Part shown: positions 6,001 to 9,000 of the stretch, piece by piece
How the letters are laid out: each line of letters opens with the position of its first letter
Position numbering within the stretch: position 1 is the first letter of the stretch
DNA from: a virus
Lineage: Duplodnaviria; Heunggongvirae; Uroviricota; Caudoviricetes
IMG/VR virus record: IMGVR_UViG_2645727555_000019
Reading direction: 5' to 3' (one strand)
DNA length: 11,743 nt
Program-made: the position numbers

Positions 6001-9000
6001 TGACACCGAACTTCCCCGCCAGTTCCTCACAGGTTTTAGCCCCCTCCTGAGAGATAAACTCAATCATCATGTCAGCGCTAACTTTTGGAGCGACCTCTTC
6101 GGTCAGCATATCCTGTGTTTCAGATTTTACTGGCCGCTCTTCGGTTACCCCGGCTTCACCTTCGACAGCCAGAAACCAGGTGTGACCCGTTTTATCAACA
6201 ACGCCATTTTTTTTGAGCTCCCACAGTTCGTTGAGAACTTCTTCACGGCTGATATCAAGCCGCGCCGCCAGTTCAACAGAATTGGCTTTTCCCATCGCTT
6301 TCAGTGCATGCAATACGGTTTCCATCGAAAATTTACCTCGTCAAAAATTCTCACATACCCTGACGTCCAACGTTTGACCGCCAGCTCTCCCAGTTAAAAT
6401 TCACCCAACGACCACCGTTCATGGTCATCCGGTCCATAATCCTCTCACCAAGAAGCGTGCTCATTGCGGCATGATTCAGGTTTGTCAGCATCCCGACACT
6501 GCGCAGTGATGCCGTCCGGCGGTCAACAATCTGGTGCAGTACCACCTGCTCGTTTTTCGTCTCACGCTGGATGCCAATTTCGTCAAGAACCAGGAGGTCC
6601 ACTTCGCACAGTTCACGCAAAAATTTTTCCCCTGACAGTCCGTCGTCATAGCTGGCATGTAACGCGCTCATCACATCCGCCACGGTGACCACTATCACGG
6701 ATTTACCGGCCTTCAGCAGACGATTACCCACAGCCGCCGCCAGATGATTTTTTCCGGTTCCCGGATTCCCGCTGAACACGAAGTTTGTATAACTGGTCAT
6801 CAATTCATCGACAATGGATTTCGCCTGGCTCAGAGCATGGCGCTGACCGTCGTTCTGCACCCGGTAGTTCCCGAATGAGCACTTCCTGTGAAGCGGCTGG
6901 ATGCCCGCACGGTTCAGGATTTTTTCAACCCGCGCCTGATGATTCAGGCGGTTAATTTCCTCGCTGCGCTTACGGCCCTCAGCCAGTTGCCATTCCCGCC
7001 ATTCGTCGGTCGTCCGGAACGGTGCTGCCACGTGCGGTGGTGCCAGACGGCGCACCCGTTCAAGAATCCCTCCAGTCGAAATGTTTTTCATGGCTGATTA
7101 CCCCCTGAAACCCGGCGGAATTTCGGTGTCCGGTTCAGAAATGTGATTCACGCAACGCAGGCTGACTGCGCCAGCCTTCGGCAGCGACCACGGATTTTCG
7201 AAATTCCTGTTCGGGCCAAAAAACGTCGATGCCTGCTGAACAAATTCAGTTCCCGCTTTCCCGGTAGCCTCCAGGTATCTTGCGTAACGCCTCACGCCAT
7301 CCAGCACGACATCCGGTGACACCCCTTCGCGTAATCTGGCCCTCCAGGCATTGAACGCGGATTTCTTCGGGTTTGACCCTGCCCGATGCGGATATTCACG
7401 CCAGACCCGTTCGAACACGTCAGGATAATCAACTCGTCCCGCAGACGGTCCCGGCATCGCCCGGGTTAACCCAATCGGCTTCCCGCTCATCGCGGAATCG
7501 GCTTCAGGCTGCTGCGGTTGGCGTTGTTGCTCCGGTTCGACGATCAGCACCTGCTGCACACAACGCCCGGAATCTGCTTCCGGTGTCGTGCCAGCTGGTC
7601 CTGGACGTTCAGTCAGAACAGGACAAAAATCCCCCTGTGGGTCCGTGGCGATTTTTTCGCCATGGACCAGAAGGGTTTTATCCCTTTCCTGTTCTTGTTC
7701 CTGTTCCTGTTCTTGGCTTGAAAGGGGCTCTGAAGGGGCTTCAATTTTCCGACATGATTCACGTCTGACATCCAGGTGGAAATCATCCTTATATCTATCA
7801 TAAAAGGATGATAAAAAAGGATTTTCCAGCAACGCGGAATATTCATTTCTTACCCCAGCACAACGGTTATCGCCAGGTTTCAGCGATTCACCAACCTGCC
7901 ATGCTGCCATTTCATGCACCCATACAACCTCAGAATCATGGTCATAGCTGCAAAAACCAGCCTCGCAAGCCATTTGAAGCCCCTTAGAAGCCCCTTCAGG
8001 ATCAAGTCCGGTTTCGTGAGCAATGTACAAAACAGGCAGGTAATAAAGGCCCAGCATATTGGAATGAGGCGAGGTCATCATATACAACGCCACTACCATA
8101 CTTTCCGGACCAGACTTCCTTAGTTTTCGCCCTGTATCGCCTAACCAGAACTGAGGTGAAATTGTTGCGTAATTACGCATAGTCCCCTCGCATACAAGAT
8201 TTACTCCATACCGCAGACGGTCCCGGTATCTCCCGGGTTAACCCAATCGGCTTCAGGCTGCTGCGGTTGGTGTGACTGCACATTGGTGTGACTGCACATC
8301 TTCACAGACGGTCCCGGTATCTCCGGGTTAACCCAATCGGCTTCAGGCTGCTGCGGTTGGTGTTGTTGCTGGCGAAATTCTTCCAGATGTGGCAGAATTA
8401 TTCCCGTGTATTGCTCCATGCCCTGCCTGAATATCAGATGTTCATCAGGATTTGCTCAGAACGTCCGGCCCCAACCGGACGTTTTTTATTTGCATGAACG
8501 TTAATGGCATGCTGGAAAGCCCGGCTGATCGGACTGATATCAGATGCCATCTGGAACGCGCATAAAATCGCCGCGATGTATCGCCAGTCGGTACGACTGA
8601 CCTTCGATTCATGGCAGCCAATCATCTTCGCCAGTCCCCTTTGCGTCAGAGCTGACAGGTTGATAAGTAAATCCGTTTCAGCGCGATCGATATCGCGCTG
8701 TGACAGTTTGCTGTAACTTGTTTGTGACATTTGTTAATTTTCCTATATTGATATGGGGTTAAGCGGCAATCCCCAATGGGTTTGCCACTGATGTTTGCTC
8801 ACCCTGTTAGAGGTGAACGACCAGCAATGTTAAAGAGCGGTGTTACTTATTCAGCCTGGTTCGGATGAGGAAACAGGTGCGGTAAGTCCGGGCGAATTTC
8901 GTAAGCCTTAACCTGACCATTGGTGGCATTAACGATAGCGAAAACTTTTTCAGGAGAAACTTTTCCGCCTCGCAACCATTTATGAACAGCGGGCTGTGAT

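Follow-up and report, generated by a model that had tools for sequence, protein, structure and literature searches.

The repeats between cII and the O-like initiator gene of a lambdoid prophage are probably an amplified copy of the initiator linker, and a candidate origin lies inside the initiator gene

The virus record IMGVR_UViG_2645727555_000019 (Caudoviricetes) carries a lambdoid replication region in which the gap between cII and an O-like replication initiator gene contains direct repeats that also occur inside the initiator gene. An earlier note on this DNA had proposed that these repeats are a candidate origin or iteron array or, alternatively, the scars of a partial duplication of the O-like gene. 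The gap, its repeats and the flanking genes were studied in the stretch of 11,743 nucleotides (nt) that is hereafter called the window, and in its relatives. The genes of the locus are the following, the one open reading frame (ORF) in the gap being of 72 amino acids (aa):

9182-9889, plus strand: cI.
8434-8730, minus strand: cII (Pfam Phage_CII, E = 6.5e-26).
8201-8419, minus strand: the 72-aa ORF (PHROG 2751), which spans the repeats and the putative remnant of a lambda-type junction described below.
7098-8180, minus strand: O-like replication initiator (phrog_1701 match), with a winged-helix N-domain, a variable linker and a C-domain.
6351-7091, minus strand: DnaC/IstB-like ATPase.
5555-6325, minus strand: DUF1627 protein, with a helix-turn-helix, co-inherited with the replication module.

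Over this region, identity to the phages PhiR5_2, phiSTEC1589-Stx1c, POCJ13 and 75/02 Stx is 94-99%, and of 5,426 complete E. coli genomes, O104:H4 strains among them, 78 contain a prophage with the same region. A search of the literature found no paper on this replication module, on the GAAGGGGCTTC motif treated below or on the origin of POCJ13 or 75/02 Stx.

The repeats of the gap and their counterpart in the initiator gene are arranged as follows:

8305-8363, minus strand: distal repeat copy, 59 nt, which derives from the end of the O-like linker and has a 1-nt deletion relative to the proximal copy.
8214-8273, minus strand: proximal repeat copy, 60 nt, adjoining the start of the O-like gene.
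8267-8298: exact tandem duplication of 16 base pairs (bp), twice TTGGTGTGACTGCACA, which is filler between the two units.
7439-7531, minus strand: third copy, the parent one, which lies in the O-like linker and directly precedes the C-terminal domain.

In a gapped alignment, the distal and proximal copies are identical in 59 of 60 columns with a single 1-nt gap, and they recur with a period of 90 bp. The left part of the linker copy matches the distal copy at 35 of 36 positions and its right part (7439-7482) matches the proximal copy at 42 of 44, so that alignment confirms the two repeats of about 60 bp, the 16-bp tandem duplication and the third copy in the O linker that the earlier note had described. 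These repeats are far beyond chance. The homology to the O linker also extends into the left flank of the distal copy (AGCAACAAC, to 8372) and, beyond the proximal copy, to about 8210 (GTCTGCGG), while the linker copy is split by a 23-bp internal duplication that begins with GAAGCCGATT and gives it two GAAGCCGATT motifs. O-derived sequence and junction filler thus occupy about 8210-8372, and the claim that repeats fill the whole gap stands for this part but not for 8373-8433, the 60 bp next to cII, which are unique and resemble the corresponding junction of lambda. The units of the array measure 90 bp (113 bp in the related locus L006) with cores of 59-60 bp, and are not short (about 17-22 bp), helically phased iterons; the sole short motif that they have in common is GAAGCCGATT, once per 90-bp unit. 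The G+C content is 0.55-0.58 across 8200-8380, against 0.45-0.50 in the flanks, and the array has no AT-rich neighbour. The sense transcript of 8170-8440 gives no RNA structure signal (minimum free energy z = -0.26) and no Rfam match, and the array contains no CII-binding site of the form TTGC-N6-TTGC. A microhomology, ATGGAG, that might have flanked the whole insert was discarded because its alignment was unconvincing.

The number of repeat units varies among near-identical prophages. The structures catalogued across 49 loci were these:

253-bp gap, two units: 36 loci; this is the form in the window.
163-bp gap, one unit: 6 loci, several of them with an intact O gene (358-366 aa).
Three 90-bp units: 1 locus (L008), with an ORF of 102 aa.
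Three 113-bp units: 1 locus (L006), with a 23-bp insert of the O linker kept in each unit.
Deletion between the upstream and linker copies: 1 locus (L005), with the O N-domain lost.

The other 4 loci either repeat the same viral contigs or stop short of the O start. Some of the one-copy forms are hybrid (L104 and P0008), which is consistent with their derivation from the two-copy state by recombination, and the 16-mer is itself variable in copy number, with extra 16-mers in P0002 and one in P0004. In L006, a GATGCC variant and the 23-bp insert are common to the linker copy and the upstream copies, which indicates gene conversion between them. The window and L006 diverge most in the junction (5.9%) and the linker (4.2%); the figure is 1.3% for the N-domain of O and 0% for its C-domain. 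In L005 (2560-2640; E. coli SW071619), the upstream repeat has recombined with the copy in the O linker, so that the whole initiator N-domain was lost and the prophage is defective. This harmful deletion is the sole demonstrable consequence of carrying the array, which shows no constraint on reading frame or sequence beyond descent.

The array is confined to one young, near-clonal lineage of E. coli and Shigella. Each of the 78 E. coli genomes that have this O allele carries it, and it occurs in 20 of 20 loci of the window type, as against none of the 60 loci that have the same linker and C-domain at ~81% identity. Relatives at ~70% protein identity, which lie in a Rac-like ydaS/ydaT context, have no upstream copy, and the array is equally absent from the Klebsiella relatives and from about 60 more distant loci. 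Since it is missing upstream of all the relatives outside the E. coli lineage, it was not inherited together with the DNA-binding domain of the initiator.

The O-like protein itself matches phrog_1701, described as a "DnaD-like helicase loader", and no Pfam or NCBIfam family. Its N-domain (aa 1-150) has a winged-helix topology in an AlphaFold2 model (predicted local distance difference test, pLDDT, 89), whose structural matches are weak (E about 0.01) and are all winged-helix proteins (MarR/CAP). The last 25 residues (336-360; window 7098-7170) resemble the C-terminus of E. coli DnaT (PDB 2ru8, 6aep and 9zbt, E about 0.01), and this tail may mark a contact with the helicase or its loader. The linker between the two domains is unstable. 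Units of 23-24 nt beginning with GAAGCCGAT have been gained and lost in it among relatives, and in the lineage of the window it is frameshifted over 48 nt (7439-7486) relative to the lineage of L022, by a 1-nt deletion and a compensating 1-nt insertion, so that SAMSGKPIGLTRAMPGPSAG stands in place of SAIQREADRVVPESTGQSVG. This change of frame indicates that the peptide encoded there is not under selection. A hairpin or palindrome at the end of the linker, CCCGG-N6-CCGGG, appeared conserved in its arms and variable in its spacer between two deep lineages; it fails within the L022 lineage, its arms being broken without compensation in L157, L182, L183 and L213, and it was rejected.

A natural fusion is found in L007 (1864-2910; E. 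coli OkiPb01711), where an unrelated "replisome organizer" N-domain is joined to the same linker and C-domain. Comparison with L024 and with window 7098-7720 places the fusion boundary at the start of the linker (..NTMVHG..), and the arrangement shows that domains have been shuffled among the phage initiators whose partner is this DnaC-like loader. As the same linker follows an unrelated N-domain in this locus, the repeated sequence does not travel with the DNA-binding domain of the initiator.

The unique 60 bp next to cII have a different ancestry. The junction was aligned on the gene strand to lambda 38554-38719, and the lambda coordinates of oop were used to place the oop start and the pO -10 element in the window:

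8373-8433: unique segment homologous to the lambda cII-O junction, with the predicted pO -10 element and the predicted 5' end of oop.
8393-8398, plus strand: predicted pO -10 element, CAGAAT, placed by alignment to lambda.
8406-8491, plus strand: predicted antisense RNA of the oop type, facing the 3' end of cII, with its 5' end (about 8406) placed from the alignment alone.
8458-8485, plus strand: stem (11 pairs) of an intrinsic terminator, followed by a T run, which aligns with the lambda oop terminator.

The 3' end of cII and the next 60 bp, the body of oop and the terminator all align with the cII-O junction of lambda. The terminator is antisense to cII as in lambda, and the -10 element is at the equivalent place, with CATAAT in lambda corresponding to CAGAAT in the window, where it is preceded by TG. 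The -35 element of pO is weak, and a generic promoter scan made no pO call. In lambda, pO falls within the opening codons of O; the window has lost the lambda-type O (the lambda O ATG aligns with a CTG at 8394-8392), and its predicted promoter region is followed by the repeat array. Because the end of cII, oop and pO align in this way, we read 8373-8433 as the remnant of a lambda-type junction that would still encode an oop-like antisense RNA. When phages that combine this cII/oop end with another O gene were sought, so as to recognize the replaced module, only members of the same lineage, or cII genes at 75% identity, came up.

A far stronger origin candidate than the array is an iteron-like pattern within the O-like gene, outside the repeats. 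Its parts are:

7976-7996: candidate iteron cluster 1, GAAGCCCCTTAGAAGCCCCTT on the plus strand, which is two 11-bp units (gene nt about 185-205).
7722-7744: candidate iteron cluster 2, two 11-bp units, inverted relative to cluster 1 (gene nt about 437-470).
7770-7840: AT-rich stretch between the clusters (G+C 0.32-0.40), a candidate unwinding element.

The 11-bp unit consists of GAAGGGGCTTC plus one free base and is found in tandem at these two fixed gene positions across the whole initiator family, which ranges from E. coli to Betaproteobacteria; in certain lineages a third cluster precedes the start codon by 14-46 nt. All three exact matches to GAAGGGGCTTC in the window fall within the O gene, and among 80 distinct genes of the family the density of the motif is 5.12 per kb in the gene and 0.18 per kb in the flanks, a 28-fold difference. 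On the gene strand, cluster 1 encodes EGASKGL, within the recognition helix predicted by the model (residues 61-73). Its synonymous sites are frozen in a comparison of 73 genes (GAA 69/69, GGG 70/71, GCT 66/73, AAG 67/67, GGG 66/71, CTT 69/73), while the spacer base and the neighbouring conserved codons vary freely. Cluster 2 lies at the boundary of the N-domain and the linker and coincides with an inverted repeat (I1, 23 nt, 87%). Its orientation and frame differ by lineage, so that it encodes EAPSKPL, EGASKGL, KGLGKGL or RGFEGAFKGL, from which it follows that the DNA is conserved and not the peptide. Between the clusters, the G+C content falls to 0.32 at 7780-7839, the lowest value in the region, and 76 relatives share a conserved drop in G+C at gene nt 350-410, immediately upstream of cluster 2. 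Whether the motif variants of the two clusters covary within genomes gave a marginal result (p about 0.04), which is confounded by the near-palindromic motif and was not used. Directly after cluster 2, a (GAACAG)n tract (window 7686-7712) encodes the peptide SQEQEQEQ, which is kept across the family with variable codon use, and whose variation in length contributes to the 358-366 aa of O. The GAAGGGGCTTC clusters that flank the AT-rich segment are most likely the binding sites of the initiator and would form the probable origin, a layout that, by analogy with lambda, would be the one expected of an origin inside its own initiator gene.

Several explanations of the array may be considered in this context. 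The one that we favor, with a probability of roughly 65%, is that a slippage-prone segment of the linker was copied to an ectopic place, at a joint between modules, and amplified there in tandem, and that the resulting array has no dedicated function. A swap of the replication module would have placed a non-lambda module behind the lambda-type cII/oop junction, and a copy of the last 60-70 bp of the present O-like linker would have come to lie next to the remnant of that junction. The source stretch encodes an unconstrained peptide, and its DNA already contains short GAAGCCGAT repeats whose number changes by slippage. The ectopic copy would then have been amplified in tandem, with a unit of 90 bp, or of 113 bp where the 23-bp insert is included, and its copy number would have moved between one and three through slippage or unequal crossing-over, together with gene conversion with the linker copy; the 72-aa ORF would be a by-product of the swap and of the duplications. 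We infer the order of these events and the lack of function from the homologies, the polymorphism of copy number and frame, the restriction to one lineage and the deletion variant. Of the two proposals of the earlier note, the scars of a partial O-gene duplication are thus borne out by the near-identity to the O linker and the one to three copies. Its reading of the repeats as an origin or iteron array is not supported, in view of the GC-rich units of 90 or 113 bp without an AT-rich flank, of their restriction to one lineage and of the occurrence of the linker behind an unrelated N-domain; as sites for the initiator, the repeats give way to the other motif inside the gene, GAAGGGGCTTC, which carries the iteron-like conservation at the DNA level.

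Nevertheless, some observations weigh against a functionless scar. The earlier note had looked to an absence of the repeats from near-identical prophages; one- and three-copy variants with an intact O exist, but no zero-copy prophage was found within the lineage, so the dispensability of the array is not established. The lineage, whose O N-domain is at least 98.6% identical throughout, is too young to gauge conservation, and the dominance of the two-copy form could reflect selection as well as clonal sampling. Each unit also has the 10-bp sequence GGGTTAACCC, which is a perfect palindrome, and one GAAGCCGATT motif, which agrees with the family motif in 8 of its 10 positions, so that a weak binding of the array by the initiator or by another protein is conceivable. 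Finally, the ancestral state may have been either one copy or two, and the 33-nt filler that includes the 16-bp duplication has no other copy in the window from which its source could be recognized.

One alternative is that the array is an accessory set of binding sites for the initiator or for a different replication protein, be it a second arm of the origin, an autoregulatory or titration array or a handcuffing partner of the linker copy. The tandem arrangement just ahead of the initiator gene, which itself contains a matching copy, the palindrome and GAAGCCGATT of each unit, the concerted evolution of the upstream and linker copies and the retention of at least one copy in every member of the lineage would all agree with such a role, and the family-motif cluster just upstream of the start codon in distant relatives offers a precedent for the layout. 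Yet one of the two mismatches of GAAGCCGATT falls on a position that is conserved in about 95% of the units, and the matches with at most two mismatches in the window (16, against 9.6 expected) are not clearly above chance, for which reasons GAAGCCGATT was rejected as a degenerate form of the family motif. Moreover, the linker sequence does not track the DNA-binding domain, as its presence behind the N-domain of L007 indicates, neither the 60 loci that share this linker and C-domain nor any of the more distant relatives have the array, and its units of 90 or 113 bp, with a G+C content of 0.55-0.58, no AT-rich flank and a freely varying frame and length, also speak against such a role. We consider this explanation unlikely. 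It is similarly doubtful, and slightly more so, that the array is a copy-variable cis element in which the upstream copies of the linker end recruit or titrate the initiator at low affinity, or the DUF1627 protein, and so tune the expression of the initiator or the firing of the origin.

The two remaining alternatives concern expression from the gap. The 72-aa ORF could be a real small gene, acting as a mimic of the O-linker peptide QPQQPEAD, which it encodes in the same frame as O does, or as a translated spacer that couples the translation of cII to that of O. It is annotated in all the related phages, under the name of a hypothetical protein, and constitutes PHROG 2751; it starts 14 nt past the stop of cII and ends 20 nt before the start of O, the frameshifted variants end 4 nt past the O ATG and thus overlap the start of O, and the 90-bp unit keeps the frame, so that the one-, two- and three-copy forms remain open at 42, 72 and 102 aa. 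On the other hand, the ORF matches only 10 protein clusters among 5.8 billion, every one from E. coli, with homologs in E. coli and Shigella only, and no Pfam or NCBIfam family; neither a conserved reading frame nor homologs beyond the clonal lineage were found. Among its variants, frameshifts have created three or more unrelated C-termini, of which some are found on 22-43 contigs, and in L006 the ORF is cut to 41 aa and unannotated, so that some 300 nt go untranslated. The lambda sequence aligned with its ATG is not an ATG, its first codons are constant because they overlap the oop start and pO, and its Shine-Dalgarno sequence, as read from the DNA, is weak or badly spaced. A functional gene therefore seems improbable, and the ORF is probably a by-product of the repeats, in agreement with what the earlier note had supposed. 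Still less probable is that the array is a regulatory part of oop/pO, a spacer or upstream element that sets the activity of pO or insulates it from the expression of O. The array does begin immediately upstream of the predicted -35 element of pO and occupies the place where lambda has the start of O, but no promoter-like or factor-binding pattern was found in it, the idea is a pure inference, and the distance to O shifts in steps of 90 bp without visible consequence.

The preferred reading of the array as an amplified linker copy is also the one suggested by comparison with known systems. The origin of lambda consists of four 18-19-bp iterons and an AT-rich region inside the linker of the O gene. 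The locus resembles it in the repeat-bearing segment of the initiator linker and in the lambdoid order of cII, initiator and helicase loader. However, the iterons of lambda are short, are phased at about 20-24 bp beside an AT-rich unwinding region and are annotated as bound by the N-domain of O, whereas the array has cores of 59-60 bp in units of 90 or 113 bp and is GC-rich, lineage-specific and not tied to the N-domain; the layout of the lambda origin is better matched by the GAAGGGGCTTC clusters and the AT-rich stretch at 7722-7996. Iteron control arrays are also known outside plasmid origins, such as incA of P1 and the gamma-origin iterons of R6K. Like them, the array is a set of repeats linked to an initiator gene, next to that gene and outside the presumed origin. 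Those arrays, though, are built of the short iteron that the origin itself uses and are conserved along with the initiator, while the unit of the array lacks the conserved motif of the family and the array is absent from relatives. The Bacillus phage SPP1, whose initiator G38P has oriL inside gene 38, is an example of an initiator gene that contains its own binding sites; this parallels the GAAGGGGCTTC clusters, not the repeats between cII and O, and involves another protein family and another site sequence. The closest likeness is with the variable-number tandem repeats and junction scars of mosaic lambdoid phages. The array is likewise a copy of a nearby gene at the joint of modules of differing ancestry, and it shares with them copy-number polymorphism, gene conversion and deletion between copies; we see no substantial difference.

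Elsewhere in the window, Rfam finds matches to the C4 antisense RNA, to its a1/b1 target and to isrK, elements that belong to the P1/P7-type antisense immunity systems. Two sets score above the gathering threshold and a third, weaker match is to isrK. A strong match to the sok antitoxin RNA implies, as far as the sequence can tell, a hok/sok-type toxin-antitoxin locus in the prophage. These matches are located as follows:

385-583, 1970-2168 and 3792-3873: C4, a1/b1 target and isrK matches (Rfam).
4032-4206, minus strand: sok antitoxin RNA (Rfam, 116.9 bits).

In itself the array is of little importance, as an unstable scar that inflates annotation with a "hypothetical protein", PHROG 2751. 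It can nonetheless inactivate the prophage by deleting the N-domain of the initiator, and it can be used as a copy-number marker for the Stx and O104:H4-associated prophage lineage. Setting it aside as an origin pointed to the probable true origin of a widespread and uncharacterised initiator family, and the candidate origin made up of the GAAGGGGCTTC clusters is a direct target for work on the phages that carry Shiga toxin genes.

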